NCBI GenBank assembly: GCA_040375675.1
Contig: JBEIRY010000001.1
Coordinates: forward strand, 3,543 to 67,542
Direction of reading: 5' to 3'
DNA length: 64,000 nucleotides
DNA from: Thermoleophilales bacterium
GTDB lineage: Bacteria > Actinomycetota > Thermoleophilia > Solirubrobacterales > 70-9
Under the pieces are notes generated by a model. The model worked only from the letters and a program-made list of their open reading frames with translations, was not told the DNA's origin and ran no database searches. This document shows, one piece after another, positions 11,911-53,908 of the stretch. Numbering within the stretch: the first letter of the stretch is position 1; each line of letters starts with the position of its first letter. Both the position numbers and the translations under genes were made by a program.

Positions 11911-12803
11911 GACGCATCACCGCGAAGACGATCCTCGAGCCGCTTGGAGGTTCCGGCAGCGACCGCGCGCTCGGCCCTCTCGGGGTCGAGTTCGACCCCC
12001 TCGCGGTCGGCCAGGTCCAGCAGGCGCTGGCGCTCGGTGTCTTGTCTCGCCCACTCGAGAAAGAGCCAGGCGAGAACGAACAGTGTGATCAGACCCTGCT
12101 CGGTCAGCATGATCGTGCCGGCGGTCCCCTGGTCTGCCAGAGGATTTATGCCCCAGAACTCCCGGCCGCTTGCGTAGTCGGGATAGAAGTCGGTGTCGGC
12201 CCAGAGGAAGACGTTCCCGAGCACCGTCCCCACCAACCGGACCGCGATTAGGTATCCGATCTTGGCCGGCAGGGTGAACCAGGTCGGCTTCGGAAGGGGG
12301 CCGAACAGCGGCATCCACATCAGCACCCCGAACCCGATGAAGCAGAGGTGCTCGAGAGCGTGAAGAGGGGGACTGGTGAGCGCGCCTTGGTAGAGCACGG
12401 GCAGGTGCCAGACGTAGAGGTTGATCGCCCACAGCGGCAAGGCGACCAGCGGGTGTGCAAGCACCCGCAGGCGCGAGAAGAACTCGATCGAAAGCACCGG
12501 CTGCAAGAGCGGGCCGGTCAACCCCAAAACCAGCAGGAGCGCACCTATGTCGCCGATGATCAGGTGCTGGATCATGTGAGCCAGCAGAAGTTCCTCGCCG
12601 ATATGCGCAACCGGCGCCACATAGGCAGCGACGATCAATACGAGTCCGGCAGCAAAACAGATCAACCGCCAGGTCGGAACCGGGGTGCCGCGAGCCGCCA
12701 GCGTCGCGGCACGACGCAGGTACATGAAGGCCAGCACGACCACACCGGTGACCTGGAGCGGCGCGAGGATCGGTCCGCCTACGTGGGCTAGAGGGAATTC
12801 CAT
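11907..12803 (-). CDS. ctaG: cytochrome c oxidase assembly factor, CtaG (Caa3_CtaG) family membrane protein
   Basis: I place the start at the internal ATG (MEFPLAHVGG). The protein is polytopic, with HMIQHL and LHALEHL motifs as in Bacillus-type CtaG. The longer ORF N-terminus looks non-coding. Confidence 0.65.
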   Translation of the reverse strand: MEFPLAHVGGPILAPLQVTGVVVLAFMYLRRAATLAARGTPVPTWRLICFAAGLVLIVAAYVAPVAHIGEELLLAHMIQHLIIGDIGALLLVLGLTGPLLQPVLSIEFFSRLRVLAHPLVALPLWAINLYVWHLPVLYQGALTSPPLHALEHLCFIGFGVLMWMPLFGPLPKPTWFTLPAKIGYLIAVRLVGTVLGNVFLWADTDFYPDYASGREFWGINPLADQGTAGTIMLTEQGLITLFVLAWLFLEWARQDTERQRLLDLADREGVELDPERAERAVAAGTSKRLEDRLRGDAS

Positions 12804-12922
12804 CGGGTTCGCCCTTGAGCGTAGCGTGAGGCTCGCGCTGGCTACCCGGGAACAACTCTGTAACCAACTCCCTCTCGACTGACCGTAGGATTGTTCGGCG
12901 AAGTGGGAGAGCGAGTGAACAG

Positions 12923-13951
12923 ATGAGAGCGCGGCGAGTCGGGATAAACGGCTTCGGTCGGATCGGGCGGCTCGCCTTGAGGGCTGCATGGGACTGGCCG
13001 CAATTCGAGTTCGTGCATGTGAACGAAGTGGCCGGGACTGTCGAGAGCGCGGCTCACTTGCTCGAATTCGATTCGGTTCACGGCCAGTGGGCTCGCGATA
13101 TCGAGGTCGAAGCAGCCGGATTCGCTGTGGGAGGCGAAAGCATCAGCTTCACGCAGCACGATGAACCCGGACTACCACCGTGGGATGAACTCGGAGTAGA
13201 CCTAGTGATCGAGGCGACCGGGCAATTCAGAACCGAGGAAAGCCTTCAGGCCTACTTCGAAAACGGCGTCGAGAAGGTGGCCGTTGCGGCGCCTATGCGT
13301 GGGGAACGGACTCATTCGATCGACATCGTCGTCGGAGTCAACGACGACGCCTACCAACCTGAATTGCACCGCATAGCGACTGCGGCATCGTGCACGACCA
13401 ACTGTCTTGCGCCGGTCGTCGAGGTACTCAACGCAGGCATCGGCATCGAGCGCGGCTCCATCACCACCTTGCACGACATGACCAACACCCAGGTCCCTGT
13501 GGACCATGCCCACAAGGACCTCCGAAGAGCGAGGGCCGCCGGTGTCTCGCTGATCCCGACCAGCACCGGCTCCGCCACCGCGATAGGAGTGATCTTCCCT
13601 GACCTCGAGGGTAAACTCGACGGGCTCGCGGTCCGGGTGCCGCTGCTGAATGCATCGCTCACAGACTGCGTATTCGAGGTGGGCCGTCCAACGACCGTCG
13701 AAGAGGTGAACCAACTCCTCTGCGATGCAGCCAACGGACGGCTCGAGGGAATCCTCGGCTACGAGGAGCGCCCACTCGTGTCCGTGGATTACCGGACCGA
13801 CCCCCGTTCCGGCGTGGTCGATGCACTCTCGACCAGGGTCACCGACCAGACGCAGGTGAAGGTCCTTGCCTGGTACGACAATGAGTGGGGCTACGCGAAT
13901 CGACTCGTCGAGCTCGTCCGTTCCGTCGCAAGCTCGATCGAAAGTGACTAG
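12923..13951 (+). CDS. gap: type I glyceraldehyde-3-phosphate dehydrogenase (ArsJ-associated)
   Basis: 342-aa ORF. It has the NAD-binding motif [10 protein letters not shown] and the catalytic motif [10 protein letters not shown]. Its stop is 3 nt before arsJ. Confidence 0.9.
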
Positions 13952-23645: not shown

Positions 23646-24596
23646 TCAGACGCTCGGCGGCGTATCGCGCAGGTACCACTCGGCATCGAGTGCGCCCTTG
23701 CAGCCTGAGCCAGAAGCAGTGATCGCCTGTCGATAGGTGTGGTCGACCAAATCACCTACGGCGAATACCCCCGCCAGTTTGGTGCGAGTTGAAGGCTCCT
23801 CGGTCACTACATAGCCCTCGTCGTTCAGATCTACCTGGCCATCGACCAGACTCGAAAGCGGTGTATGGCCGATCGCAACGAAGGCTCCACCGACCTCGAG
23901 CTCCTTCTTCTCGCCGGTTTCGGTGTTCTCCATCGCCACCTTGGCGATCTTTCCATCCTCTCCTGCGATGAACTCGGTCGGGGCATAAGGAGTGAGGAAC
24001 TCGATGTTGTCCTGGTCGCGCGCACGGTCCTGCATGATCTTCGAGGCGCGGAACTCATCGCGCCGGTGGACGATGGTCAGCTTGCTGGCGAATTTCGAGA
24101 CGAAGATCGAGTCCTCCATCGCCGAATCGCCGCCTCCTATCACCACGACCTCCTGATCTTTGAAAAAGGCTCCATCGCAGACGCCACAGGTAGACACACC
24201 CATCCCCTGAAGCTCCTGCTCTCCGGGGATGCCAAGCCTCTTCGGCTCCGCGCCCATTCCGAGAATCACCGACTTGGCCTGATGTTCCTCTCCTCCGACC
24301 ACGACCGTCTGCACTCCGCCGTCTGACAGGCGAAGTTCGGTTGCGTCGTCGGTGATGAATCTGGTACCGAAGCGCTCGGCTTGTGCGCGGAACTCTCCCA
24401 TCATCTCGGGGCCCATGATCCCCGTGGGGTAGCCCGGGTAGTTCTCTACATCGGTCGTGTTCTGCAGCTGACCGCCCCAGGCAAAGCCCTCGACGACCAG
24501 CGGCTCCAACTCGGCGCGCGCGGCATAGAGCGCAGCCGTGTAGCCAGCGGGGCCGCCGCCGACGACGATCATGTTTTCGATTCGATCAGCACTCAT
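23646..24596 (-). CDS. trxB: thioredoxin-disulfide reductase
   Basis: 316-aa ORF. It has the FAD motif VVGGGPAGYTAA, the redox motif CGVCDG and the NADPH motif GGGDSAMED. Confidence 0.9.
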   Translation of the reverse strand: MSADRIENMIVVGGGPAGYTAALYAARAELEPLVVEGFAWGGQLQNTTDVENYPGYPTGIMGPEMMGEFRAQAERFGTRFITDDATELRLSDGGVQTVVVGGEEHQAKSVILGMGAEPKRLGIPGEQELQGMGVSTCGVCDGAFFKDQEVVVIGGGDSAMEDSIFVSKFASKLTIVHRRDEFRASKIMQDRARDQDNIEFLTPYAPTEFIAGEDGKIAKVAMENTETGEKKELEVGGAFVAIGHTPLSSLVDGQVDLNDEGYVVTEEPSTRTKLAGVFAVGDLVDHTYRQAITASGSGCKGALDAEWYLRDTPPSV

Positions 24597-24657
24597 CGAA
24601 AACTCATCCTAACGAGGGAGGCAGTCCTCCCACTTCCGCACCGCTTCGGTGAGCTCG

Positions 24658-25842
24658 TCAGCCGTCGCCGGATGCTCCGGAACCCTTGACCGGAGCGGGC
24701 AAAGGCACGCTACGTCCCTCAGCCTCCCAGCGCGCAACCGTGTGTCGCAGTTGGAAGAAGGCGATGATCCCCGGCGGTATCGGCAGCCAGAAGGCGATTA
24801 CGCGATAGGTCAACACGGCGGCGAATACCTCAGCGGCCGGGATACCGAAGAGAACGAAGGCTCCGATCATCCCGGCATCGACTGCACCCACTCCGCCGGG
24901 TGCGAGCGGAAAGAGGTTCGCAACCATCCCGAGAAAGAACCCTTGGACGATCACCCCGAAAGGAACCTCGACATGGAATGCCTGAAAGCTGGCCCAGAGG
25001 ATCCCTATGTTCGCTGCCCAGAACCCGATCGCGCCGCTGAAGGCGAGGATGCCGCTCTTCGGGTCTTCGGCAAAGGCGAGTGCATCGCGCGTTCCTTGTG
25101 CGAAGGTCGCAGGAGCAGAGGCAGCCTTCTTGGCGAACTTGGCAAATCGTCCCGATAGTGCCCCCTCGATCCGCCCCTCGATATCTCCCGGAAGCAGTGC
25201 CAGCAACGCGACGATCAAGATTGCGGCTCCCGCAAGCGCGGCGGGAATGATCGTCGTTGACACCTTCCCACCCCCGGGCAGCACACCGGTGCGCAACAAA
25301 ACCCCGAACACGATCAAGGCGAACATGTAAACCGAGTAGAGGATCACCAAGAAAGCAACCATCCTGCCGGCAGCCAGCCTGCGCTCCATGCCCGCCTTCC
25401 TAAGCGCCCAGTAGGTAAGGAATATGCCGCCCGCGCCACCAGCAGAGAAGATCCGGGTAGCCGCGAGGCCGGCCATCGTGATCTGGTAGGACTCTGCCCA
25501 GCGCAGGTGGATGATCTTCTCGGCGACGACTCCGCGAAACAGCGCAACGTATGCGGCAAAGGCCAGGATGTTGAACAGCAACGCCACCACGACCCAGTCG
25601 AGGTCTCCCTTCTCGATCGTGCCGAACGCGTCCTCGAGACCGACGAGTCTCGGGAACAGCACGTAGATGGCTACGGTCAAAGCCACGACCGCCAACAGGG
25701 TCTGGATGATGCGCTTGGGGGCTGCGAAGAACTTGGGTTCGGCCTCGGCGAGAACCTGCTCCGGCGACTCCGCGGTCATCTCCTCGGCAAGTTCTTCCTT
25801 CTCTGACTTGGCCTTTTGGGGTTCGTCAGGCACCAGAGTCAC
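24658..25842 (-). CDS. lysylphosphatidylglycerol-synthase-type transmembrane (UPF0104, flippase-like) protein
   Basis: 394-aa polytopic membrane ORF. The pattern, including a PGGVG-type motif (APGGVGAVDAG), is typical of UPF0104. Confidence 0.6.
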   Translation of the reverse strand: MTLVPDEPQKAKSEKEELAEEMTAESPEQVLAEAEPKFFAAPKRIIQTLLAVVALTVAIYVLFPRLVGLEDAFGTIEKGDLDWVVVALLFNILAFAAYVALFRGVVAEKIIHLRWAESYQITMAGLAATRIFSAGGAGGIFLTYWALRKAGMERRLAAGRMVAFLVILYSVYMFALIVFGVLLRTGVLPGGGKVSTTIIPAALAGAAILIVALLALLPGDIEGRIEGALSGRFAKFAKKAASAPATFAQGTRDALAFAEDPKSGILAFSGAIGFWAANIGILWASFQAFHVEVPFGVIVQGFFLGMVANLFPLAPGGVGAVDAGMIGAFVLFGIPAAEVFAAVLTYRVIAFWLPIPPGIIAFFQLRHTVARWEAEGRSVPLPAPVKGSGASGDG

Positions 25843-26796
25843 CTACGCGTTGGCGATGTCCTCCAGGGTTCGGAGCCGATCGCTGACCATCTCCGCCACC
25901 GGCTCAAATCGAGGATCGAGGAACCGCACAGCGGCAACCAGCGCAGCGCCTGCGGCCAGATCAGTTACGTAGTGCTCGCCGAGGTAGACGAGAGCAAAGC
26001 CGAGAGTCAGGGCGTAGGCCCATCCAATCGCGCCATCGATCTTTCCTGTCTCGGAGAGAAGAATCGCTGCCATCAGCGCGCTGGCAAAGTGGAGCGACGG
26101 CATCGCCGCCCACGGATTGCCGTCGAAGGTTCCGTACAAGCGCTCCCATGCAGGACCCCATGTGTCCTCCCCTACTTCGGTCATGATCCGCCGGACGCGG
26201 TCGGGGGTGTACCCCTCCTGAGAGGCCCACCACGGAGGAGCGGTGGGGACCACGGCATAGCCAACGCAACCGATGTCGTAGACCGCTGCGGTCTGACGAG
26301 CGGCCCTGGCGAAGGTTTCTGGCTTGCGGGCCATGATCCAGATCAACGCACCATGCGGCCAGAAGAACCAGAGCCAATGGGCCCAGGAGAGCGACTTGTC
26401 CAGAGCGTTGCCGCGTCCAAGCCCCGAGAGTGCCTCCTGAAGTCTGGTATTCGGAAGCTTGCCACGGCCGATGGCAGTGTCGATCCGAATCGGATACTTG
26501 ATCTTGACCCGCCGCCGAAGCGCCTCCGGGTCGTCGTATGGAAGCTCATGGGAGACGATGAACGCCCAGCCCTGAAGGAAGTAGAGAGCAAGGTCACGGG
26601 CCGGGGTGCGCCTAGAGAGAACCGCAAGCGCAGGGGGACCAGAGGCAACAGCAGCGGCTGTCGCAGCCGGGGGAATCTTCAGCTGCTTGCGGACCAAAGG
26701 CACTACGGCTGCAGCACCGAGCGCCGCAAATGCGGCTCCCCGCACCAGTGGACGCAATCTGGTGCGCTGCGGTGGTTGGCGGTCCGCTCTATACAC
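25843..26796 (-). CDS. PAP2-superfamily (PAP2_3 / inositolphosphotransferase-like) membrane protein, start uncertain
   Basis: The C-terminal motifs PSLHFASAL and GEHYVTD are PAP2-type. There is no in-frame ATG near the expected N-terminus, so I propose the GTG at 26796. The longer ORF to 27210 would overlap the divergent epimerase gene. Confidence 0.6.
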   Translation of the reverse strand: MYRADRQPPQRTRLRPLVRGAAFAALGAAAVVPLVRKQLKIPPAATAAAVASGPPALAVLSRRTPARDLALYFLQGWAFIVSHELPYDDPEALRRRVKIKYPIRIDTAIGRGKLPNTRLQEALSGLGRGNALDKSLSWAHWLWFFWPHGALIWIMARKPETFARAARQTAAVYDIGCVGYAVVPTAPPWWASQEGYTPDRVRRIMTEVGEDTWGPAWERLYGTFDGNPWAAMPSLHFASALMAAILLSETGKIDGAIGWAYALTLGFALVYLGEHYVTDLAAGAALVAAVRFLDPRFEPVAEMVSDRLRTLEDIANA

Positions 26797-26853
26797 AGGC
26801 GTGGCGAGTATAAGTCGGTAAGAGGAATCCCCGCGCAACCGAACGGCCGCCAA

Positions 26854-27828
26854 ATGACCGAGACAGACAATTCGAACCTCGAGGGAAAGACTCTGGCCGT
26901 CACCGGCGCAGGGGGATTCATTGGGTCCGCCGTCTGCCAGCGGGCAAGCCAAGAGGGAGCGAAGGTGATCGGCCTCGACAGGGACCGCGAGGCGATCGAG
27001 AGGGCCCGCACAGCAGGAGCAACCGAGGTAATAGAAGGCGACGTGGTCGACCGCAATGCGGTGGCCCGCGCGATCTCCGGAGCCGACCTGGTGGTTCATA
27101 CGGCAGCCAACGTGAGGGAATGGGGTTCGATGGAGGACTTCATCGAAGTCAACGTGGCCGGTACGGCAAACGTGCTCGACTCGGCACCGGAAGGCGCGCG
27201 GATCGTTCACCTCAGTTCCGTAGTCGTCTACGGCTACGACGACCCAAGCACCCAGGACGAGTCGGCTTCACTCAGATCTGTGGGGATCCCGTATGTAGAC
27301 ACCAAGGCGGCATCGGATCGTCTCGCCAGAGAGCGACGAGCGGTCGTCATCAGGCCGGGAGATGTCTACGGGCCAGGCTCGGTTCCCTGGGTGGTCCGGC
27401 CGCTTCAGCTGATGAAAAAGCGAATCCTCGCGGTTCCCAAGGAGTCCTGGATGCTTCCAGTCTTCGTCGATGATCTAGTCGACGCGATCATGCTCGGACT
27501 CGAATCCGGCAAGCCGGGAGAGGCCTACACCGCCTGGAGCGGCGAACAGGTCACCTTCGCCGAGTACTTCGATCGGCTCGCCTTGGCCGCCGGACTACGT
27601 CCCCCTCTGAGGCTTCCCACCCCGGCCCTCTGGTTGGTGGGCGCTCTCGCCGAGGGGAGCGCACGCCTTACCCGACGGCCCCCTGCAATCGGCAGGTTCG
27701 GAGCAACCTTCATCTCCCGCTCGGGTGATGTGTCGAACGAGAAGCTCAGAGAGGGCCTCGGTTGGGTTCCCAAGGTGACGATCGACGAAGGAATCGCCCG
27801 CAGCGTGGCTGGTCGAGAGCACGAGTAA
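26854..27828 (+). CDS. NAD-dependent epimerase/dehydratase family protein
   Basis: I place the start at MTETDNSNLEGKTLAVTGAGGFIGSAV (GxxGxxG motif). The YVDTK catalytic Tyr-x3-Lys is present. The upstream part of the 670-aa ORF is antisense to the PAP2 gene. Confidence 0.8.
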   Translation: MTETDNSNLEGKTLAVTGAGGFIGSAVCQRASQEGAKVIGLDRDREAIERARTAGATEVIEGDVVDRNAVARAISGADLVVHTAANVREWGSMEDFIEVNVAGTANVLDSAPEGARIVHLSSVVVYGYDDPSTQDESASLRSVGIPYVDTKAASDRLARERRAVVIRPGDVYGPGSVPWVVRPLQLMKKRILAVPKESWMLPVFVDDLVDAIMLGLESGKPGEAYTAWSGEQVTFAEYFDRLALAAGLRPPLRLPTPALWLVGALAEGSARLTRRPPAIGRFGATFISRSGDVSNEKLREGLGWVPKVTIDEGIARSVAGREHE

Positions 27829-27935: not shown

Positions 27936-28355
27936 ATGAAATTGGCAGCAGCCAAGAAGAAGGCATCGAACATGGGTCCCTCCGGCTGGGCAGCATTTGC
28001 CGGCGTAATCCTGTTCGTGGTCGGCGTGTTCAACGTCCTGTACGGACTGGCAGCACTGCTCAATGACAGCCAGGTGCTGGTCACGAACGGCCACGACGGA
28101 GTGCTGATCTGGAACCTGACCACCTGGGGCTGGATACACCTGGTGATCGGAGCAGTCATGGTCGCCGTCAGCATCGGGCTGTTCGCAGTCAAGGAGTGGG
28201 CGCGCGTAATCGCAGTCATCTTCTGCGTACTGAGCGCAATCGCCCATATCGGTCTGATCACCGCGTTCCCGCTGTGGTCGATCCTGATCATCGTCCTCGA
28301 CGTGCTGGTGATTTACAACCTCACGGTCAAGGGCGGGGAGATGAAGACCGCTTAG
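27936..28355 (+). CDS. small 4-TM membrane protein (DUF7144-like)
   Basis: 139-aa ORF with an AAGGAG Shine-Dalgarno upstream. The GWAAFAGVILFVVGVFNVLYGLAAL pattern recalls an actinobacterial conserved membrane family. Confidence 0.6.
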   Translation: MKLAAAKKKASNMGPSGWAAFAGVILFVVGVFNVLYGLAALLNDSQVLVTNGHDGVLIWNLTTWGWIHLVIGAVMVAVSIGLFAVKEWARVIAVIFCVLSAIAHIGLITAFPLWSILIIVLDVLVIYNLTVKGGEMKTA

Positions 28356-28387: not shown

Positions 28388-28443
28388 CTCGACCCGCGTC
28401 GGTGGACCCTTATCGGGCTCGCCGGCGCGGGTCGAGTTTGTTC
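28388..28443 (+). terminator. possible hairpin terminator after the DUF7144-like gene
   Basis: An 11-bp perfect inverted repeat, CTCGACCCGCG ... CGCGGGTCGAG, is followed by TTTGTT. The loop is long (27 nt), so confidence is modest. Confidence 0.35.
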
Positions 28444-28518: not shown

Positions 28519-29298
28519 TTGCTCGCACCAGATCCCGCCAGCTCAAGCACCGGTTCCGAGATCAACACCCTGTACTGGATCGCGCTTGCGATCGCGGCAG
28601 TGTTGGTCCTGCTGATCAATGCCGGTTTGATCGTGATGTTCCTGCGCGGTCGCGCTTCGAGGGGCGACCAGCCCAAGCCTGCAAGATCCAAACGCGGTTC
28701 GACCTTGGTGATTGGTGCTGTGCTCGCAGCACTCGCGGCCGCGATCTTCGTGGTCGGGATCATCTACACGGAGGGAGCGGGGGTCGAGACCACCGCCGCA
28801 TCAGCCGCAGACAGCGAAAGCCAGATGACAGGCGACGACACCGAAGCCAAGGCCGCTCGTGGAGAACAAACGCTCGAAGTCCTTGCATCAGGTCAACAGT
28901 GGATCTGGCGATACCAGTACCCGGATGGCACCTTCTCGTATTACGAACTCGTTCTGCCGGTCGGGCAACCGGTCAGGATCGACCTCGAATCAACCGATGT
29001 ACTCCATCGCTGGTGGATTCCCGGGTTGACCCAGAAGGCCGATGCCGTGCCGGGCAAAACCCATGTCCTGAGCTTCACCCCCGACAAGGAGGGGACATTC
29101 AAGGGAGCCTCTTACGCATTCTCCGGGTCCAACTACGCCACGATGAGGACAGTGGTCAGGGTCGTCTCGCAAGATGAGTTCAACCGCTGGCTCGATGACC
29201 AGGGTGCCGAAATCGCCTCGGCTCAGAAGTGGGTGCAGGACGAGATCGCCAAGAACGGTCCTTACGGCGCAATCGAGAAGGCAGGGGCCGAAAAGTGA
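28519..29298 (+). CDS. heme-copper oxidase subunit II-like protein lacking the CuA centre
   Basis: 259-aa ORF with a TTG start. It has two N-terminal TM helices and a cupredoxin domain (QQWIWRYQY, DVLHRWWIPGL). The CuA motif CxExCGxxHxxM is replaced by SYAFSGSNYATM. Confidence 0.85.
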   Translation: MLAPDPASSSTGSEINTLYWIALAIAAVLVLLINAGLIVMFLRGRASRGDQPKPARSKRGSTLVIGAVLAALAAAIFVVGIIYTEGAGVETTAASAADSESQMTGDDTEAKAARGEQTLEVLASGQQWIWRYQYPDGTFSYYELVLPVGQPVRIDLESTDVLHRWWIPGLTQKADAVPGKTHVLSFTPDKEGTFKGASYAFSGSNYATMRTVVRVVSQDEFNRWLDDQGAEIASAQKWVQDEIAKNGPYGAIEKAGAEK

Positions 29299-30983
29299 GA
29301 GATCCGATCAATACCCATCCCGAAGTCGCGGTTCAGGGGGTCAGCTCCAAGCGTCCAGGGTGGATGAGCTTTGCGACCAGTTCCGACCACAAGGATGTCG
29401 GAAGGATCTATATCGGCGCCGCGCTTGGCTTCCTCGCGCTGGCAGCAGTCGAGTTCTTCCTGATGCGTCTGCAGTTGATGGTCCCTGACAACACACTGAT
29501 AGCTCCGGTCACCTTCAACCGCCTGCTTTCCGTCTTCGGAGTGACCCTGACCTCCCTGTTCGTACTGCCCCTCGCAATGGGTCTGATCACCTACCTCCTG
29601 CCCCTGCAGATCGGTGCGCGCTCGCTCGCGTTCCCCCGTCTGGCGACCGTTGCTCTCTGGCTCTTCTTGACCGGAGGGGCCTTGACCTACATCTCCTTCT
29701 TCTACACGCCCCCCGAAGCAGGCCCGCTCGGCCTCCCTCCGCTCTCTGGCGACCTGGCCTTCATCGACAACAACGGAACCGATGTCTGGATTGCCACCGT
29801 CGGGCTCTCCACACTCGGTCTCGTGCTGCAGGCGATCAACATCGTCGTCACCGCCTCGCGCGAGCGCGCGCCGGGTATGGCCTGGAGGCGATTCCCGACC
29901 TTCGCGTTCTCTGGCGTGGTCAGCTCCTGGCTGCTGCTCGTAGTAGGACCGGCGATGATCGCGGGCTTGACCATGCTGATGATCGACCGCCACTACGGCG
30001 GAGTCTTCTTCAATTCCGGAGAAAGCGGCTCCCCCACCTACTTCGAACACCTCAGCTCGATCTTCACGACCGGCGTCTATCTGATCACTCTGATCACCGC
30101 GATCGGCGCGATCTCGGAAATCCTGCAGACCTTCGCCGGAAGAGCTCTCCCACACAGGCGCGCGGTCTCACGTTCGCTCGTCGCCATAGCGGTTCTCGGG
30201 TCTCTGGCCTGGATGCAGAACATGATGTCGGCCGAGATCCGCATCGGCTTCCTCTACGCCGCGATGGCCTTTGCCCTGGCGCTCATCGTGCCCATAGGCA
30301 TCGTCTTCTGGAACTGGTTCGGAGTACTTGCTTCAGGCTCGATCAAGCTGCGCGCGCCGGTCGTCTTTGCGGTCGGCGCGATCTCCCTGCTCAGCCTCGG
30401 ACTCGCCGGCGAGATGATGCAGAGCCTGATCCCGGTCAACTGGCTGCTGGCCGGCACTACCGACTCGACAGCAGAGACGGGCCTGGTGCTGATCGGCGGA
30501 TCGGTCATGGCCGGATTTGCAGCGCTGCACTACTGGATACCGAAGATGACCGGTCGTGAGGTCGGTGAGGGAACTGGCAAGGTCTCTGCGGTCGTGATCT
30601 ACCTGAGTGCCCTCGTCATCTGCGCCTGCCTGTTCCTCGCCGGACTCAACGGACAGCCGGCCGATACCTACAGGTTCTATGCAGGAGAAGGTCTCGATAC
30701 CTACAACCTGATCGCATCGATCGCGGCGATCGTGCTGATGCTCGGGATCTTGACCGAGCTGACGAACATCACGCTGAGCGTCCACCACGGCCGGCGCGTT
30801 GGCCACGATCCATGGGGCGGCTCGACACTCGAATGGTTCGCCCTCTCGCCTCCGCCCGCTCACAACTTCGACCTGGTACCTGATGTCCGCTCGAGCGAGC
30901 CGATGTCCGACATCAGGCGCGGAATAGAACGTGATTCGGCTGAAGCCGCCGAGACGGCCAAGGTCGCTGAGCCGGTAGCCTAG
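29295..30983 (+). CDS. heme-copper oxidase subunit I-like 12-TM protein lacking all heme and CuB histidine ligands
   Basis: The GTG start overlaps the subunit II-like stop (GTGA). It aligns almost without gaps to the canonical CtaD in this window and keeps the DHK, AFPRL, RAPGM, GGSV, HYWIPK and STLEW motifs. All six ligand His residues are substituted (see findings). Confidence 0.85.
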   Translation: MRDPINTHPEVAVQGVSSKRPGWMSFATSSDHKDVGRIYIGAALGFLALAAVEFFLMRLQLMVPDNTLIAPVTFNRLLSVFGVTLTSLFVLPLAMGLITYLLPLQIGARSLAFPRLATVALWLFLTGGALTYISFFYTPPEAGPLGLPPLSGDLAFIDNNGTDVWIATVGLSTLGLVLQAINIVVTASRERAPGMAWRRFPTFAFSGVVSSWLLLVVGPAMIAGLTMLMIDRHYGGVFFNSGESGSPTYFEHLSSIFTTGVYLITLITAIGAISEILQTFAGRALPHRRAVSRSLVAIAVLGSLAWMQNMMSAEIRIGFLYAAMAFALALIVPIGIVFWNWFGVLASGSIKLRAPVVFAVGAISLLSLGLAGEMMQSLIPVNWLLAGTTDSTAETGLVLIGGSVMAGFAALHYWIPKMTGREVGEGTGKVSAVVIYLSALVICACLFLAGLNGQPADTYRFYAGEGLDTYNLIASIAAIVLMLGILTELTNITLSVHHGRRVGHDPWGGSTLEWFALSPPPAHNFDLVPDVRSSEPMSDIRRGIERDSAEAAETAKVAEPVA

Positions 30984-30987
30984 GGTC

Positions 30988-32007
30988 ATGCAGAACCCTC
31001 GCGCAGGCGAGGCCCTGCGCCGGTTTAGGCGCCTCGCCCTGGTAACAGCAGTTGTGACTTTCCTCCTCGTCGTAGTCGGCGGGATAGTCCGTGTCAGCGA
31101 GTCCGGTCTGGGCTGCGGCCCTTCCGGCAGCGGACTGCACGGATGGCCGCTTTGCGGAGGACAGGTGCTGCCGGTCGTTGGCGACGAGGCGCTTTTCGTC
31201 GAGTTTTCACACCGCTTCCTCGCAGGGGTTGTCGTGCTGCTGATCGCAGTGATGATCTGGCTTGCCTTCCGCGATCTGCGTGAGCTGCGCTGGCCGGTGC
31301 GCGGATCTATTGCGGTTGGTGTCTTGGTGCTCTGCCAAGCGGCCCTGGGCGGCCTGACGGTCGAATACAACCTCTACGAGGCCCTGGTGGCCGCACACCT
31401 CTGTCTGGCGATGATCTGTTTCGGTTTGCTGATCTGGCTCACCGTCGCCGCTGGCGACTCTGAACGCGTCGACGCAGGCGAAAAGCCAAGGGCGCCGATC
31501 TCGAAACTGAAGCCGTTCGTCTTTACCGCTGCCGGCTTCCTGCTTGCCTCGATGGTTGCCGGCTCATACATGGCCGGAACCGAAAAGCTCGGCTCCGATG
31601 GAGCGGCGGCCGAGGGGGCACACATGGCCTGCGGTAACCAGTTCCCCGGCTGCCTCAACAAAGGCGTGCTGCCATTTGGCACCAACGAACTGATCGACAT
31701 CCACCTGACCCACCGCGTGCTCGTCTACTGCGCTGCGCTGGCGATCATCGTGCTCTTGATTGCTGCGTGGAGGCTGGGTTCGCGCAGCAAGCTGCTGCTG
31801 CTGGCAGGTGGGCTGCTGACCCTGCAGATCGCACTTGGCGGGATGAATGTATGGCTCGGCGAGCATGCCGTGCTCGTAGTTGCACACCTTGCTACCGCTG
31901 TTGCCCTCTGGACCTCGATCCTGCTGATCGGCTACACGCAGGCGCTCTCGCCTGCAGCCGCTCCCAAGACAAAGAGGAGCCGGAATACAAAAGCAGTGGC
32001 TGCCTAG
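30988..32007 (+). CDS. ctaA: heme A synthase (COX15/CtaA family)
   Basis: 339-aa, 8-TM ORF. Cys pairs occur in GLGCGPSG..WPLCGG, and His motifs in FSHRFLAG and HLTHRVLVY. Confidence 0.85.
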   Translation: MQNPRAGEALRRFRRLALVTAVVTFLLVVVGGIVRVSESGLGCGPSGSGLHGWPLCGGQVLPVVGDEALFVEFSHRFLAGVVVLLIAVMIWLAFRDLRELRWPVRGSIAVGVLVLCQAALGGLTVEYNLYEALVAAHLCLAMICFGLLIWLTVAAGDSERVDAGEKPRAPISKLKPFVFTAAGFLLASMVAGSYMAGTEKLGSDGAAAEGAHMACGNQFPGCLNKGVLPFGTNELIDIHLTHRVLVYCAALAIIVLLIAAWRLGSRSKLLLLAGGLLTLQIALGGMNVWLGEHAVLVVAHLATAVALWTSILLIGYTQALSPAAAPKTKRSRNTKAVAA

Positions 32008-32008
32008 G

Positions 32009-33016
32009 ATGCGTACCGAAACGACAACTCCTTCGAGCCCCACCTCCAGATCCGCCAGCGGGGAACCCGCCACGACCAACGGCAACGGGGTGCCGGCCAA
32101 GAGCAGCCTCAACGCAACGACCACCAGTAGTTCGCAAGATGGCGTAATGCGCAGGGCGATCAGCACGGCAAACGACTACGTGACCCTGACCAAGCCGAGG
32201 ATCATCTCGCTGCTGCTGCTCACCACGGTCGCAACCATGTTCGTTGCAGATCCCTCCGGCCCCGGCATCGGGACCATCCTCTGGACGATGCTCGGTGGAT
32301 ACCTCGCTGCAGGAGGCGCCGGGGCAATCAACCACTACCTCGAGCGCGACACCGACTCGCGAATGGAGCGCACCCGAGGCAGGCCGCTGGCATCAGGGCG
32401 GATCAGCCCGCTCAAGGGGCTGGCTTTCGGAATCGCCCTGGGCACCCTGGCAACGGTTCAGCTGGCCATCACGGTCAACCCGCTTGCGGCAGCGCTGTCG
32501 CTGGCCGGACTGCTTGGCTACGTGTTCGTATACACGCTCTGGCTCAAGCCGCGGACACCGGAAAACATCGTTCTCGGAGGAGCTGCCGGAGCCATACCCC
32601 CATTGGTCGGCTGGGCTGCGGCCACCGGTGGCCTGACCCTGGATGCCTTCTGGCCATTTGCGGTTGTCTTCTTCTGGACTCCACCCCACTTCTGGGCGCT
32701 CTCGCTGCTGATATCCGACGACTACGCCAAGACCGGCACGCCAATGCTCCCGAACGTCCGAGGCGAAGCAACTACCAGGCAGCGGATCCTCCTCTACACG
32801 CTGGTGCTGACCGCAGTCAGCCTGGCGCCGTTCTTCACTGGGCTGTTTGGATCGCTCTATCTGATCTCGGCATCTGTACTCGGAGGAGTGTTCATCGCCG
32901 GAAGCATCGCCCTGATAAGGCGTCCCTCGCGCGAATCGGCACGGAATCTCTACCTCTGGTCGCTTGCTTACCTGGCACTGCTCTTCTGCACTATGGCCCT
33001 CGACCGCGTCCTATAA
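32009..33016 (+). CDS. ctaB: protoheme IX farnesyltransferase (heme O synthase)
   Basis: UbiA-family protein with YVTLTKPRIISLLLLTT and a NHYLERDTD-type Asp-rich motif. The ATG is 1 nt after the ctaA stop. An alternative internal start at 32147 (MRRAIST) would remove a low-complexity leader. Confidence 0.88.
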   Translation: MRTETTTPSSPTSRSASGEPATTNGNGVPAKSSLNATTTSSSQDGVMRRAISTANDYVTLTKPRIISLLLLTTVATMFVADPSGPGIGTILWTMLGGYLAAGGAGAINHYLERDTDSRMERTRGRPLASGRISPLKGLAFGIALGTLATVQLAITVNPLAAALSLAGLLGYVFVYTLWLKPRTPENIVLGGAAGAIPPLVGWAAATGGLTLDAFWPFAVVFFWTPPHFWALSLLISDDYAKTGTPMLPNVRGEATTRQRILLYTLVLTAVSLAPFFTGLFGSLYLISASVLGGVFIAGSIALIRRPSRESARNLYLWSLAYLALLFCTMALDRVL

Positions 33017-33029
33017 GGTTCCTCTCGTA

Positions 33030-33140
33030 ATGGATCGCAATCGAGCACGCTCAAACATCAAGTCCGGCCTGTGGGCTGGGGCCCTTGCCCTGTTCGTTTT
33101 TGCCGCCGCCTTCTACATCGCAGTCCTCTACCTCGCATGA
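33030..33140 (+). CDS. 36-aa single-pass membrane peptide (not in ORF track)
   Basis: Hand translation gives MDRNRARSNIKSGLWAGALALFVFAAAFYIAVLYLA followed by a stop. It lies 13 nt after ctaB, and its stop overlaps the next ATG (ATGA). Confidence 0.4.
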   Translation: MDRNRARSNIKSGLWAGALALFVFAAAFYIAVLYLA

Positions 33141-33485: not shown

Positions 33486-34163
33486 ATGAATCGTCCCAAG
33501 TCCTTCGGAGCATTTCTGCGCATTGGTATCGGGCTCGTCGCCACAGCTTCCCTCGTGGCCCTCTCTGGCTGCGACCTCCAAGAAGACGCAGACACCGCCC
33601 GTGGTGAACAACTCTTCGTCCAGAAGTGCGGCAGCTGCCACGCCCTGACCGCGGCCGGCACGCAGGCAAACGTCGGACCAAACCTCGACTACGCCTTCAA
33701 AGCCTCCAGGGCGATCGGTGCGGACCAGGACACGATCGAGGGCATCGTCACTCACCAGATCGAGTACCCGCGCCCCGCCGACCCGAAAGACACCCACCTC
33801 TACATGCCGGCGAATCTGGTCGAAGGCAATGACCTGAAAGACGTTGCCGCATACGTAGCGAGCGTGGCAGGCGTACCGGGAATCAAGCCCCCGCAGTTCG
33901 TGCCTGAGGAGTTCTTCGTATCCAACTGCGGCGGCTGCCACATACTCTCGGCTGCAGGCACGCAGGGCGTAACCGGACCGAATCTCGACAACAGCCTTTC
34001 CGGGCAAACTCCGGATTGGATCCAGAATGCGATCGTCAACCCCAACAGCGAGATCGCTGCCGGCTATCAGGCCGGGGTGATGCCACAGAACTTCGGTCAG
34101 GTAATGACGCCTGACCAGCTGAAGAAGCTAGTCGACTACCTCGAGAAGTCAGTCAACGGCTGA
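33486..34163 (+). CDS. diheme c-type cytochrome lipoprotein
   Basis: 225-aa ORF with a lipobox signal (VALSGC). It has two CxxCH motifs (CGSCH, CGGCH), each followed by a distal MP Met (LYMPANL, GVMPQNF). Confidence 0.85.
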   Translation: MNRPKSFGAFLRIGIGLVATASLVALSGCDLQEDADTARGEQLFVQKCGSCHALTAAGTQANVGPNLDYAFKASRAIGADQDTIEGIVTHQIEYPRPADPKDTHLYMPANLVEGNDLKDVAAYVASVAGVPGIKPPQFVPEEFFVSNCGGCHILSAAGTQGVTGPNLDNSLSGQTPDWIQNAIVNPNSEIAAGYQAGVMPQNFGQVMTPDQLKKLVDYLEKSVNG

Positions 34164-34448: not shown

Positions 34449-35078
34449 CTAGAGGACGTAGACGGTGACGAAGACGATCACCCACATCACGTCGACGAAG
34501 TGCCAATAGATACTCGGCAGTTCGAGTCCGCGGTGATCTTCAGCCTTCGGCCCGAAGTGGCCGCGCCACAACCGCACGTTGACGATGGTGAGGAGGATGA
34601 GACCGACGATCACGTGGGCGCCGTGGAGGCCGGTCAGACCGTAGAAGATCGAACCGAAGGCACCGTCACGGGCGCTGAATCCTACGTGGATGTACTCGTT
34701 GAGCTGAATGAAAAGGAAGGTGGCACCCAACAGCCAGGTAACCGCCATCGCAGCCGTCGCGGCCCTGCGATTGCCTCGACGAATACCTTCAAGCGCCCAG
34801 TGAATCGTGAAGCTCGATGAGACCAGGATCGCCGTATTGACCCCCGCCACGACAACCGGTAGCTCATACGGGGACGGCGGCCACGGGCCGTCGTTGACCA
34901 CCACCCGCAGGAAGAAGTAGGAGGCAAAGAACGCGCCGAAGAGCATCGCCTCGGTGACGAGGAAGATCAGCAATCCGAGCGTGGTCTGGTCGACCTTCGA
35001 GCTCTTGTTGGCCTCGGGTGGCCCGTGATGGTGATGGTCGTCTGTTGCGTGACCCAAGCTCACGGATGCGCTCTCCAT
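34449..35078 (-). CDS. ctaE: cytochrome c oxidase subunit III
   Basis: 209-aa ORF with the FYGLTGLHGAHVIVGL motif and the terminal HFVDVMWV motif. Confidence 0.88.
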   Translation of the reverse strand: MESASVSLGHATDDHHHHGPPEANKSSKVDQTTLGLLIFLVTEAMLFGAFFASYFFLRVVVNDGPWPPSPYELPVVVAGVNTAILVSSSFTIHWALEGIRRGNRRAATAAMAVTWLLGATFLFIQLNEYIHVGFSARDGAFGSIFYGLTGLHGAHVIVGLILLTIVNVRLWRGHFGPKAEDHRGLELPSIYWHFVDVMWVIVFVTVYVL

Positions 35079-36025
35079 CAGGCCTCCTCGTCCTCTGTGT
35101 CGCTTTCTGACCCTACTGCTGCCAGGGCCGCGGACCTTGCAGCTGAAACCCTCGCACGGCGGCCGGAGGACTCGATGTGCTCTACCGGTTTACCGGTCGC
35201 CTTCTCGGCCTCCTGTACCAGCCCCTGCTCGATCCATTCGGACTTTTCGCCCTTCAGCGTCGAGATCAGGATGTCGTCGAGGCGGTAGTGCTCGTTTGCG
35301 TTACGAATCGCAGTGAGGGGGTCTGGACTCATCGGCTGACCAGTTGCATCGATCTCCTTGTCGTACATGGCGCTCAAGGTCCGCGCCAGGTTCTCGCAGA
35401 TCTCCTCGCGACTTACCTCGCCTGAGCGCGGTGCGATGAAGGTGTATCGGTGGGGGCTCTTCTCTGCCCGCTCGATCAGCCTGCTGACGAGCTCCTGACT
35501 GTTGATCGTCTTGGTCGCGACGACGAGGGTGTGGGTGATGTCCCAGTTAACGCCGTCCTCGTCCACGCGAACCGGAATGTGTTCGATCGGAACCTCGTAG
35601 CGAGAGCGTGCCCAGTCCACGAAATCACGGCGAAGAGGGCCGAAACGGGTCTCGTAGAGACACGAGAGGAGCACCCGGTCGGGATTGGTCGCCCGAATTG
35701 CATCATCGAGGGCCAGAGGCGGATCGGGGTCCATGACTCCACCAACAGAGGGGATTCCGAACTCGCCGAGGACCTGCGAGGTGACATCCACCCTGCTCTG
35801 GGCGGAGTCCCTTGCCTGATCGGGATCGACGATCTGACCTACGTCAGGCTCGTTCTGCGGCGCTATGACGCCAAAGTAGTCAGCACCTGCATCGGTCATC
35901 TCACGACAGGCGTTGAGAAGCTTTCGCCCACCAGCCACCTCGTTGAGGAATACGAGAACACGCTTCTCCTCACCGCTGCGCGGCGGATTGTCAGGCTGCG
36001 GATAGTTGGTATCCGAGTCGCTCAC
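35078..36025 (-). CDS. tandem USP-like (adenine-nucleotide-alpha-hydrolase-like fold) cytoplasmic protein embedded in the cta operon
   Basis: 315-aa soluble ORF made of two internally repeated halves. Examples of the repeat are VLVFLNE.. / TLVVATKT.. and MDPDPPLALDDAIRATNPDRVLLSCL / MSPDPLTAIRNANEHYRLDDILISTL. It overlaps the ctaD stop (ATGA) and the ctaE start (TGATG). Confidence 0.6.
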   Translation of the reverse strand: MSDSDTNYPQPDNPPRSGEEKRVLVFLNEVAGGRKLLNACREMTDAGADYFGVIAPQNEPDVGQIVDPDQARDSAQSRVDVTSQVLGEFGIPSVGGVMDPDPPLALDDAIRATNPDRVLLSCLYETRFGPLRRDFVDWARSRYEVPIEHIPVRVDEDGVNWDITHTLVVATKTINSQELVSRLIERAEKSPHRYTFIAPRSGEVSREEICENLARTLSAMYDKEIDATGQPMSPDPLTAIRNANEHYRLDDILISTLKGEKSEWIEQGLVQEAEKATGKPVEHIESSGRRARVSAARSAALAAVGSESDTEDEEA

Positions 36026-37941
36026 GGACCGGATCCCACAGAGCCGACAGTTGCCGGTTTGGGCTGCTCGACAGTTGCCTGGTCTTCGCCGGCGAGGATC
36101 GCGTGACGCGCGCCAGGTACACCGAACTCATACGGGCCGCCAACCACGCGGGGGATCTCGTCGAAGTTGAACACCGGTGGGGGCGAAGAGACCAGCCACT
36201 CGATCGTGTTCGCGCGCCACGGGTTGGCACTTGCCTTCGGGCCGTACTTCCAGCTGACGGCCATGTTGTAGACGAAGACAATCTGGGCGAGGCCGAGTAT
36301 TGCCGACGCGATCGAGATCTCCAAGTTCCATGCAGCGAACTCGGATGAGTAGTCAGCCACTCGACGGGGCATACCCTCGAGGCCGATCCAGTGCATCGGG
36401 ATGAAGGTTCCGAACATGCCCACGAGCGTCAACCAGAAGTGGATGCGGCCGAGACGCTCGTCGTACATCCGGCCGGTGATCTTGGGGAACCAGTGGTAGA
36501 GGCCAGCGAAGATCGTGAATACCGACCCACCGAAGAGTACGAAGTGGATATGAGCAACCACGAAGTAGGTGTCGGAGATGTGGATATCGAGCGGAACCAT
36601 TCCGAGCATCACGCCGGAAATTCCACCAATCACGAAAGTGAAGATGAACCCCAGAGAAAACAGCATCGCCGTTGATTGCAGGTGGATCTTTCCCTTGAAC
36701 AGGGTTCCGAGCCAGGAGAAGATCTTGATTCCCGTCGGCACCGCGATCAACATCGTCGTGATCATCATCGGAACGCGCAGCCAACTGGACATACCCGAGA
36801 CGAACATGTGGTGAGCCCAGACCGAGTAACTCAGAACGACGATCCCGATGAGTGCCAAGGCCATCAGTCGGTAACCGAAGACCGGTTTACGCGCGTGGGT
36901 GGAGATGACCTCTGAAATGATCCCGAAGCCCGGCAACATCATGATGTAGACGGCCGGGTGCGAGTAGAACCAGAAGATGTGCTGATAGCTGATCACGTCT
37001 CCTCCCATCGCAGCCTGGAAGAAGTTGGTGTTGAGCACGCGGTCGAAGAGGACCATGAACTGCACGCCGGCAATGAACGGGGTTGCAGCGACTACCAGCA
37101 GCGAGGTCGAGAGGTTTGCCCAGACGAGCAGCGGCATACGCCAGAAGTTCATGCCAGGCGCCCGCATCGTCACGATCGTGACCAGGAAGTTGATTGCGGT
37201 GGCGATGGATGAGGCCCCCGCGAACTGAACCGCGAGGTTGAAGAAGCTCTGTCCGACGGGCGCGCCGGTAGAGAGCGGCGCGTAGCCGGTCCAACCGGCG
37301 TCGAAAGTGCCGCCCGGAGCAAAGTAGCTGGCAATGAGCAATGCCCCGGCACATGGCAGCAGCCAGAAGCTGAGCGCATTGAGTCGCGGGAACGCCATAT
37401 CCGGCGCACCGATCATCAGCGGCAGGACATAGTTAGCAATGCCGGCGAACATCGGTATGACGAAGACGAAAATCATGAACGCGGCATGGGTGGAAAAGAG
37501 TCCGTTGTAGGTGTTGGGATCGACCAGCTGGGTGCCTGGCTGGGCGAGCTCGGCGCGGACTCCCATTGCGGCCAATCCACCTACGAGGAAGAAGAAGAAG
37601 GTCAGGACCATGTACTGGATCCCGATCACCTTGTGGTCGGTGTTTACCTTGAAGTAGTCCTTCCAACTGGAGGCGCCATGATCGGCGTGGTCATCAGGCA
37701 CGGTAGGCGCACCAGCAACCCAGCGCAGCCAGTAGTCGAAGCATCCGATCCCCCAGAGGAAGCCGAGCGGGCCGGTGATCAGTGCAACCACCAGCTGGGG
37801 GTAGCCGGTTTGCTCGGTCTGAATCAGCGGCAGGCCCGACGCCGCGCGCAGGGCCACCACGAGTCCGTACCCGAAGGCTGCGCCGATTACTAGTCCGTAG
37901 AGGGCGCGCCACCAACCTGCTTGTCTAAGTGCTACCGGCAT
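36022..37941 (-). CDS. ctaD: cytochrome c oxidase subunit I, A2-type, with N-terminal two-helix extension
   Basis: 639-aa ORF. All ligand motifs are present: STHAAF, YSHPAVY, WAHHMF and AHIHF. The YSHPAV motif replaces GHPEV, which marks it as A2-type. DHK appears only at about residue 102. Confidence 0.95.
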   Translation of the reverse strand: MPVALRQAGWWRALYGLVIGAAFGYGLVVALRAASGLPLIQTEQTGYPQLVVALITGPLGFLWGIGCFDYWLRWVAGAPTVPDDHADHGASSWKDYFKVNTDHKVIGIQYMVLTFFFFLVGGLAAMGVRAELAQPGTQLVDPNTYNGLFSTHAAFMIFVFVIPMFAGIANYVLPLMIGAPDMAFPRLNALSFWLLPCAGALLIASYFAPGGTFDAGWTGYAPLSTGAPVGQSFFNLAVQFAGASSIATAINFLVTIVTMRAPGMNFWRMPLLVWANLSTSLLVVAATPFIAGVQFMVLFDRVLNTNFFQAAMGGDVISYQHIFWFYSHPAVYIMMLPGFGIISEVISTHARKPVFGYRLMALALIGIVVLSYSVWAHHMFVSGMSSWLRVPMMITTMLIAVPTGIKIFSWLGTLFKGKIHLQSTAMLFSLGFIFTFVIGGISGVMLGMVPLDIHISDTYFVVAHIHFVLFGGSVFTIFAGLYHWFPKITGRMYDERLGRIHFWLTLVGMFGTFIPMHWIGLEGMPRRVADYSSEFAAWNLEISIASAILGLAQIVFVYNMAVSWKYGPKASANPWRANTIEWLVSSPPPVFNFDEIPRVVGGPYEFGVPGARHAILAGEDQATVEQPKPATVGSVGSGP

Positions 37942-37971
37942 TGGTTCCTCTCTTTGCTCATCTTAGTTTTC

Positions 37972-38709
37972 TCAGACATCGTTGCCATCCTCGGGTCGGT
38001 CAGGGACCTGATCCTGCTGGCTGACCCACTTCTCGAAGGCTGATTGCGACTCGACGACTACCGGCGCGCGCATCACGCCGTGACCCGCTCCGCAGAGTTC
38101 GGTGCAGACGAGCTGGAAATCGCCTTGCTTGTTGGGAGTGACGAAGAGATGAGTGGTGACGCCGGGGACGTTGTCCTTCTTGACTCTCCACTCCGGCACC
38201 CAGAAGGAGTGGATCACATCGAGGGCGTGCATACGAAACTCCACCTGGCGACCGACGGGTACATGGAGTTCATAGGCGCTTGCATTCTGCTGTCGGTAAT
38301 CGAAGGACCACTCGAACTGCTGCGAGTAGACATCGACCACCAGCCGGTTGGGCTCTTTGCCCTCGATCTCGTCGAGAACGACCCACGAGTAGCCGCCGAG
38401 GAAGAGGACGATGATCGTCGGGATCAGCGTCCAGACGATCTCCAACTTGGTGTTGCCGTGGATCGGCTCGCCGTCCGAGAGGTCGCCCGGCTTGGCACGC
38501 CAACGCCAGACGAAGTAGATCAACGCAACCATCACGAGAGAGAAGACGAAGCAGGAGATGACGATCGTGACCGTCAGGAGATTGTCGATCGGCCCCGCCG
38601 CGGTGGAGGCAGCCGGACCGTTCCAGTCCGGAATCAGCATCAGGTACGTGCTGATCACCGTCAGGACGATCGTGGCGCAAAAGAGCTTGAGAACTGTCAG
38701 TCGGCTCAT
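37972..38709 (-). CDS. ctaC: cytochrome c oxidase subunit II (CuA-containing, no fused cytochrome c)
   Basis: 245-aa ORF with two TM helices and a cupredoxin domain. The CuA ligand set is complete: DVIHSFWVP ... CTELCGAGHGVM. Confidence 0.93.
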   Translation of the reverse strand: MSRLTVLKLFCATIVLTVISTYLMLIPDWNGPAASTAAGPIDNLLTVTIVISCFVFSLVMVALIYFVWRWRAKPGDLSDGEPIHGNTKLEIVWTLIPTIIVLFLGGYSWVVLDEIEGKEPNRLVVDVYSQQFEWSFDYRQQNASAYELHVPVGRQVEFRMHALDVIHSFWVPEWRVKKDNVPGVTTHLFVTPNKQGDFQLVCTELCGAGHGVMRAPVVVESQSAFEKWVSQQDQVPDRPEDGNDV

Positions 38710-53905: not shown

Positions 53906-53908
53906 AAA

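Follow-up and report, generated by a model that had tools for sequence, protein, structure and literature searches.

The dead COX1 locus

The stretch of DNA analysed here, termed the window, comprises 64,000 nucleotides (nt) from a Thermoleophilales bacterium (assembly GCA_040375675.1, contig JBEIRY010000001.1, positions 3,543 to 67,542). At 29295..30983 on the forward strand, it carries a gene for a cofactor-free paralog of subunit I of the haem-copper oxidases (HCOs). The protein, referred to below as dead COX1, has 562 amino acids (aa) and 12 transmembrane (TM) helices, and its assignment draws on Pfam COX1, sequence alignments, AlphaFold2, and Foldseek. Directly upstream (28519..29298, +) lies a gene for a subunit II-like partner of 259 aa, with two TM helices and a cupredoxin domain whose CuA site has been lost, as judged by Pfam COX2 and motif alignment. 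Two genes of haem biosynthesis follow downstream, encoding the haem A synthase CtaA (30988..32007, +; Pfam COX15-CtaA, E 1.2e-35) and the haem O synthase CtaB (32009..33016, +; Pfam UbiA; 363.8 bits to the NCBIfam haem o synthase model, cut-off 246). The stop codon of dead COX1 (30981-30983) is separated from the ctaA start by 4 nt, and the ctaA stop from the ctaB start by 1 nt. The GTG at 29295 overlaps the stop of the upstream gene (GTGA) and is supported as the start codon by this overlap and by the N-terminal residues, which from position 7-8 on (E10 and W23 included) align in all orthologs. From these junctions, the four genes presumably form one tightly coupled operon. A terminator-like hairpin with a T-run 60 nt past ctaB (33077..33102, +), which a consensus scan offers as weak evidence, is a possible end of this operon. 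The conserved downstream neighbour encodes a dihaem c-type cytochrome (33486..34163, +), with two stretches matching Pfam Cytochrom_C.

Dead COX1 is a recognisable member of the COX1 family. Its match to PF00115 takes in the whole profile (positions 2-436 of 436; 240.1 bits, cut-off 34.8; E 5.6e-71). An AlphaFold2 model built from a 64-sequence alignment (pLDDT 78, pTM 0.83) has 12 TM helices and is superimposed by Foldseek on solved oxidase subunit I structures with TM-scores of 0.82-0.87, the nearest being the CtaD subunits of the Mycobacterium and Corynebacterium bcc-aa3 supercomplexes. Identity to A-family subunit I is approximately 27-31% overall and, to the canonical CtaD encoded in the window, 31% over 518 columns with 5% gaps (BLASTP). 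A preliminary description of the gene had claimed an intact 12-helix open reading frame (ORF) that aligns almost without gaps to this CtaD, and both points hold: the frame is unbroken, and the helices are recovered in the model. The G+C content at third codon positions is 0.79, typical for genes of the window. At the level of curated families, dead COX1 scores 346.6 bits with the CtaD/CoxA equivalog TIGR02891, under the cut-off of 670.75 (the window CtaD, at 671.3 bits, is barely over it), and 290.8 bits with the actinobacterial aa3 subunit I model NF050116, under a cut-off of 880. None of the curated family models reaches its cut-off for the dead COX1 family or for the other degenerate lineages described below.

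The canonical A2-type oxidase operon occupies 34449..38709 on the reverse strand, 3 kb from the operon of dead COX1. It consists of ctaC (37972-38709), which has an intact CuA motif; ctaD (36022-37941), which has all six His, the Tyr, Lys, and Asp, and the Arg pair; an ORF of 315 aa without a Pfam or NCBIfam match (35078-36025); and cox3 (34449-35078; Pfam COX3). The A2 assignment of CtaD is apparent from the motif YSHPAVY in place of GHPEVY, and the protein has an N-terminal extension of ~95 residues with two hydrophobic stretches.

Loss of cofactor ligands in both subunits and of the proton channels

The catalytic motifs of the window CtaD are each replaced in dead COX1. The haem a ligand motif STHAAF reads SVFGVT; YSHPAVY, which contains a CuB His and the cross-linked Tyr, reads FTTGVYL, with Leu in place of Tyr; the CuB His pair motif WAHHMF reads WMQNMM; and AHIHF, with the haem a3 and haem a ligands, reads AETGL. 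The D-channel motif APDMAFPR has become ARSLAFPR (Asp to Ser), and the K-channel motif VPTGIK has become VPIGIV, its Lys being Val in the window protein and Val, Leu, or Ile across the family. These six substitutions are those listed in the preliminary description, and all are present in BLASTP, MAFFT, and phmmer alignments. Additional to that list are the loss of the haem-propionate Arg pair, which is Ala-Asp in the window protein (A/V-D), and of the Mg-site His and Asp, which are replaced by Leu and Gly. The dead family has Cys or Val where canonical enzymes have the channel Glu (or, in the A2 type, the YS motif).

Read across the six ligand columns, the window protein has F, T, Q, N, E, and G, with His at 0/6, and neither profile nor multiple alignments place a His at any of them. 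Column placement is concordant among BLASTP, MAFFT with 120 homologs or 53 canonical sequences, and phmmer against M. tuberculosis CtaD (7rh5). Conservation was compared between 121 family members and 53 canonical A-family sequences. The six His are invariant in 53/53 canonical representatives and occur at none of the six columns in the 121 family members; the loss of ligands is therefore not a matter of chance.

What dead COX1 shares with A-family subunit I (7rh5, 6adq, and 7q21; R. sphaeroides 2gsm) is the 12-TM fold and 58 conserved scaffold positions in loop and helix-packing motifs. Among the loop motifs are DHK, AFPR, RAPGM, DR..FF, YW.PK.TG, TLEW, and PPP.HNF, which bears out the earlier observation that scaffold motifs survive. 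In contrast, the six His, the cross-linked Tyr, the D- and K-channel residues, the Mg site, and the Arg pair of A-family enzymes are all missing. Among positions with canonical conservation of 90% or more, 22 are altered in the dead family, all of them cofactor or channel residues, and 146 positions are conserved only in the dead family, including an N-terminal segment and the extreme C-terminus (…EPVA). To judge from its sequence, dead COX1 thus offers no ligand for haem a, haem a3, CuB, or Mg, and both proton channels are disrupted. The residue sets that define a catalytic HCO (six His, active-site Tyr, and proton channels) are absent, and the six His were required by Sousa et al. 2011 for accepting a sequence as an HCO (PMC3084760). 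The new nitric oxide reductase (NOR) families of Murali et al. 2024 all have active sites.

The C-terminal tail of dead COX1 (residues 530-562; PDVRSxEPMRDIR … EPVA) is conserved through its last residue and absent from canonical enzymes. It contains a predicted helix (536-554) and could be a docking element.

The conservation pattern at the former cofactor sites bears on what the protein may do. It is scarcely credible that dead COX1 has retained redox activity by holding haem or metal with unconventional ligands. The membrane core does contain conserved Met, Tyr, Gln, Asn, and Glu, and the partner keeps one His and the Met of its CuA site alongside an invariant Tyr. However, the residues at the former axial positions of the haems vary or are small (G/M/F/S/W/D; A/E/V/C/T/G; Gly in 97%), both CuA Cys have been lost from the partner, and the only invariant His of the dead family (H32, H252, and H523) all lie in loop motifs, H32 and H252 being conserved canonically as well and H523 not. 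Furthermore, the TM9 glycines that flank haem a3 in canonical enzymes are Leu and Glu in the dead family. This pattern suggests haem pockets that have collapsed around a buried polar cluster rather than a haem site that has been kept.

The same cluster could serve another function. Whereas the haem axial positions vary, conservation of the replacing residues is 86-99% at the CuB, Arg-pair, and TM9 positions. Together with the 146 family-specific positions, this would fit a neofunctionalised transporter or channel in which Thr259, Gln308, Asn309, Glu373, Asn382, Gln454, and Asp457 bind or translocate an ion, proton, or polar head group, or, as an example, pass haem O or haem A between membrane leaflets. 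Such a function is nevertheless unlikely, since with the D-channel Asp changed to Ser, Cys or Val at the channel Glu position, and a hydrophobic residue for the K-channel Lys, no continuous path from the cytoplasmic side is evident. Moreover, no transporter family was matched in Pfam or NCBIfam, and the cluster may be purely structural, for example, a buried hydrogen-bond network that fills the former metal site.

A subunit II-like partner, as mentioned in the preliminary description, does exist, and by its residues it too is metal-free. The partner matches Pfam COX2 (PF00116; E 1.4e-17) and scores 145.3 bits with NCBIfam CoxB, just below the cut-off of 147.7, and is nearer to CoxB than to CyoA or QoxA (57-58 bits). 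The CuA motif is H-(34 residues)-C-x-E-x-C-(3 residues)-H-(2 residues)-M; aligned to the window CtaC, the partner reads H…S.A.S…Y..M, keeping the first His and the Met and replacing both Cys by Ser and the second His by Tyr. The replacements are stable across loci (counts here and below refer to the best 80 of at least 135 relatives): the first Cys is Ser in 70 and Ala in 10, and the second Cys is Ser and the second His Tyr in all 80. The domain of a cytochrome c oxidase subunit II is therefore present, with both CuA Cys absent in 80/80 loci. Because the CuA site has been lost alongside the subunit I ligands, the whole I/II core is predicted to be metal-free. Two TM helices and a cupredoxin domain without CuA cysteines are also found in subunit II of quinol oxidases (CyoA/QoxA) and of gNOR, and CuA loss in gNOR and bo3 has been noted (PMC11214002). 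In those enzymes, however, subunit I is fully catalytic, whereas in the window, both subunits appear metal-free.

Retention across genomes and linkage to ctaB

The best 120 database clusters related to dead COX1 are 58-99% identical to it, full-length, and all ligand-less, and nearly all come from metagenome-assembled genomes (MAGs) of Solirubrobacterales or other Actinomycetota. A scan with one genome per GTDB species found relatives encoded in at least 135 species genomes, mostly Solirubrobacterales. The ratio of nonsynonymous to synonymous substitutions (dN/dS; Nei-Gojobori, against four orthologs of 86-88% identity) is 0.086-0.099 for dead COX1, within the range of the neighbouring genes: 0.11-0.125 for the COX2-like partner, 0.12-0.15 for ctaA, and 0.06-0.11 for ctaB. 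By this measure, dead COX1 is constrained as strongly as the haem synthases. Canonical ctaD is more constrained (0.026-0.035), and amino-acid substitution is approximately 3.5 times faster in dead COX1 (dN 0.087 versus 0.025).

A pseudogene, with frameshifts or stops, dN/dS near 1, and patchy retention, can be rejected: the frame is intact in 120/120 clusters and 80/80 loci, and dN/dS is ~0.09. The ligand columns, the orthologs, and dN/dS thus all lend support to the proposal of the preliminary description that the protein is a structural HCO, redox-dead but maintained, and not a pseudogene in decay, and they indicate a gene under purifying selection that is conserved across an order. A subtler alternative is a functionless relic of an ancestral oxidase operon that survives upstream of essential ctaA and ctaB through polarity or translational coupling. 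This would accommodate the 3.5-fold faster substitution and has a parallel in the Acetobacter ctaD, reportedly treated as non-functional (Matsutani 2014, as cited in PMC10715153). The relic is, however, very improbable and largely refuted by dN/dS, which reports constraint on the amino-acid sequence and not just on an open frame. Coupling alone would allow truncation and free amino-acid drift; instead, mean column identity is 73% over 64 dead-family sequences, the 146 family-specific positions extend to the extreme C-terminus, and intact copies persist in at least 135 species and even in lineages that share as little as 38% identity.

Gene order is as stable as the sequence. In all 80 loci, as far as the contigs reach, the COX2-like gene is followed by the COX1-like gene and then by ctaA-ctaB or by ctaB directly. 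ctaB is downstream of dead COX1 in 79/80 loci, the exception (L068) ending before the ctaB position, and it also follows the COX1-like gene in loci L081 and L083. The same layout is found in the more distant relatives P0123 (43% identity) and P0127 (38% identity). ctaA follows dead COX1 directly in loci L001-L032, L073, L077, L078, and L083. Two kinds of ctaA can be distinguished at the family loci: one directly after dead COX1, 47-78% identical to the window CtaA, and one of ~29% identity that lies beyond the cytochrome c gene (L033-L072, e.g., L035 10482-11408), where ctaB directly follows dead COX1. The dihaem cytochrome c is found downstream in 72/80 loci.

These neighbours raise two further alternatives. 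In the first, dead COX1 would be a structural subunit of the respiratory machinery, its core pairing with the A2 oxidase or a cytochrome bc-type complex, as in oxidase dimers and III2-IV2 supercomplexes, and being kept for the stability of its partner. Conserved neighbours of the gene include the canonical oxidase operon and the dihaem cytochrome c, the actinobacterial supercomplex CtaD subunits are the closest relatives of solved structure, and an analogous argument has been made for a ligand-less bc1 complex kept in Acetobacteraceae (PMC10715153). Nonetheless, this role is about as improbable as that of a transporter. The gene is presumably co-transcribed with ctaA and ctaB and not with the oxidase structural genes, the catalytic ctaD included, which are on the other strand; no qcr genes lie within the window; and ctaB is the only neighbour common to the other degenerate lineages. 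The second alternative is a regulatory decoy, in which a mimic of apo-subunit I competes with nascent CtaD for assembly factors or haem synthases and so throttles haem A delivery or oxidase assembly. The fold and the linkage would fit a decoy just as they would a scaffold, and pseudoenzymes often play such roles. Constitutive coupling of its translation to that of ctaA and ctaB would, however, be odd for an inhibitor of their product flow, and no regulatory element was found upstream, a promoter scan having returned no sites and Rfam no match in or near the operon. A decoy is accordingly quite improbable.

An exhaustive search of representatives at 50% identity revealed many further COX1-like lineages with partial or total loss of the His ligands, for which no published description was found. 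UbiA/ctaB adjoins the COX1-like gene in 7/7 degenerate lineages with readable context. Two layouts recur. In one (P0150, P0151, and the window clade), a COX2-like gene is followed by the COX1-like gene and ctaB. In the other (P0135 and P0238, with P0170 on a short contig), ctaB, the COX1-like gene, and a COX3-like gene precede canonical ctaCDEF, and there is no subunit II paralog. Of the six His, only the two of the low-spin haem remain in P0135 and P0170, and none in P0238. Where a degenerate and a catalytic subunit I are both visible, ctaB is transcribed together with the degenerate gene. P0127 (L083 4303-6027) keeps 2/6 His, and its partner (L083 3378-4298) has a complete CuA motif, GACAEICGANHSEM; on this single contig, P0127 may represent an intermediate stage of degeneration. 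In a rough neighbour-joining tree of 118 representatives, the degenerate lineages are on long branches, and their grouping is probably due to long-branch attraction. The P0135/P0170/P0238 and P0150/P0151 types branch separately from the window family, and the tree indicates that this family is not a recent duplicate of the A2 CtaD of the window.

Degenerate COX1-like genes of this survey are located at L084 1001-2659, L085 7001-8677, L088 6001-7629, L089 1729-3366, and L090 6001-7641. In L085 and L088, ctaB is followed by the COX1-like and COX3-like genes, an unknown gene, and then canonical ctaC-ctaD-ctaE-ctaF. A database protein of 839 aa (P0012, ENA) that appeared to fuse a COX1-like protein with CtaA was rejected: its tail is an Arg-rich, out-of-frame read-through with CtaA fragments, an assembly or frameshift artefact.

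The ctaD of Acetobacter is reportedly treated, in work of Matsutani from 2014, as non-functional through accumulated mutations. In Degli Esposti et al. 2023 (PMC10715153), which cites Matsutani et al. 2014 (BBA 1837:1810), a ligand-less COX1-like gene of Acetobacter and other acetic acid bacteria is described as kept beside ctaB, and a structural role in stabilising CtaB is suggested. The statement of the preliminary description that no function had been described for such a protein must be amended to that extent. In A. pasteurianus, ctaB and ctaD are adjacent (PMC5158111). Like the window protein, the Acetobacter type is a subunit I homolog without any of the conserved metal-binding residues that is clustered with the haem O synthase gene. 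Unlike it, the window family belongs to the Actinomycetota (order Solirubrobacterales) rather than the Alphaproteobacteria, has the order COX2-like, COX1-like, ctaA, ctaB, and keeps a metal-free subunit II paralog; its purifying selection has also been quantified. Moreover, Acetobacter has lost cytochrome c oxidase and uses a ubiquinol oxidase, whereas the window holds a complete, functional-type ctaC-ctaD-cox3 operon 3 kb away. Given the difference in phylum, the two genes almost certainly arose independently and are analogues, not orthologs. Full-text literature searches returned no description of a ligand-less subunit I in Actinomycetota.

Several other features of the window accompany this locus. 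The 315-aa ORF between ctaD and cox3 is conserved (90% identity in L002-L004, with dN/dS of 0.04-0.06, and 51-69% in many other loci) and probably encodes a subunit or assembly factor of the A2-type oxidase that has escaped recognition; it shows no homology to a 330-aa ORF beside P0135. A Caa3_CtaG copper-insertion factor (11907-12989, -; E 5e-51) is encoded 16 kb from the oxidase cluster, next to a 513-aa ORF without a Pfam match (10369-11910). Just upstream of the operon are a gene for a small four-helix membrane protein of the DUF7144 family (27936-28355, +; E 4e-34) and, after it, a terminator-like hairpin (28416-28433). Divergent neighbours (window 23646-27210, -; L081 1-2198; L083 1084-3242) are kept at 38-43% identity. 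They include an LPG_synthase_TM gene in L081 and L083, a PAP2_3 lipid phosphatase in L081, and a thioredoxin-reductase-like flavoprotein in L083, all three of which are present in the window; this conservation hints at a link to membrane lipids. A c-di-AMP riboswitch of the ydaO/yuaA type (53723-53916, +; 69 bits) directly precedes the ORF at 53909-54766. Otherwise, the window consists of ordinary chromosomal DNA.

A possible scaffold for the haem synthases

The favoured reading, to which a probability of roughly 45% is given, is that dead COX1 and its partner form a non-catalytic, empty oxidase core that acts as a membrane scaffold, a mimic of apo-Cox1, for haem O and haem A synthase. It is favoured because the fold has been kept and the chemistry lost, because the gene is under selection and linked to ctaB, because similar genes recur beside ctaB in other lineages, because Acetobacter provides a precedent, and because the haem pockets appear to have collapsed. 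According to this proposal, the subunit I-like and II-like proteins would assemble in the membrane and imitate apo-subunit I, and CtaB, plus CtaA where its gene is adjacent, would dock onto the empty core. Docking would stabilise the synthases or organise the hand-over from haem O to haem A for the A2-type oxidase encoded 3 kb away, the presumed client for haem A made by this operon. The haem O and haem A synthases of yeast are found in association with assembly intermediates of Cox1, and a mimic of apo-Cox1 is therefore plausible as a docking platform.

Several points weigh against a scaffold. Sites that once served CuB and the propionates are now occupied by strongly conserved polar residues (Thr/Ser, Gln in 96%, Asn in 98%, Glu373 in 98%, Asn382, Gln454, and Asp457), which a pure scaffold would not obviously need and which could mark a new binding or transport site. 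Additionally, ctaA is not adjacent to dead COX1 in approximately half of the loci. A mirror-tree comparison of dead COX1 with the COX2-like protein, CtaB, and cytochrome c over 71 loci gave correlations of 0.85-0.95 throughout, and partial correlations did not single out ctaB as co-evolving. Finally, canonical ctaD genes also often adjoin ctaB, and the adjacency could be a legacy of an ancestral ctaC-ctaD-ctaA-ctaB operon and not the sign of a current partnership.

A broader version of the scaffold proposal is more doubtful. It holds that cofactor-free cores, composed of a subunit I-like protein with or without II-like or III-like proteins, are widespread and have repeatedly arisen as dedicated partners of haem O synthase, that is, as permanent mimics of apo-Cox1 on which CtaB and CtaA assemble and pass on haem O or haem A. 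If true, such cores would represent a new type of oxidase-biogenesis factor and provide a naturally stabilised model of the complex in which a synthase hands over to subunit I.

A ligand-less COX1-like gene beside ctaB was already known from Acetobacter; new here are its occurrence in another phylum, the metal-free subunit II paralog, the co-existing oxidase, and the purifying selection. Public records name the dead proteins "cytochrome c oxidase subunit I", "cbb3-type cytochrome c oxidase subunit I", or "cytochrome ubiquinol oxidase subunit I", and MAG-based inventories of terminal oxidases in Solirubrobacterales are therefore inflated. The class has probably gone largely unnoticed because curated HCO classifiers silently drop such sequences (PMC3084760). 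The window family amounts to a respiratory pseudoenzyme that strong purifying selection has preserved throughout a whole order of abundant soil and freshwater Actinomycetota, and similar cases appear to have arisen in several lineages, always beside ctaB. Coupled to CtaA and CtaB, the putatively metal-free I/II pair is a natural candidate for a stable docking platform and may offer a testable handle on haem A delivery (PMC9145763).

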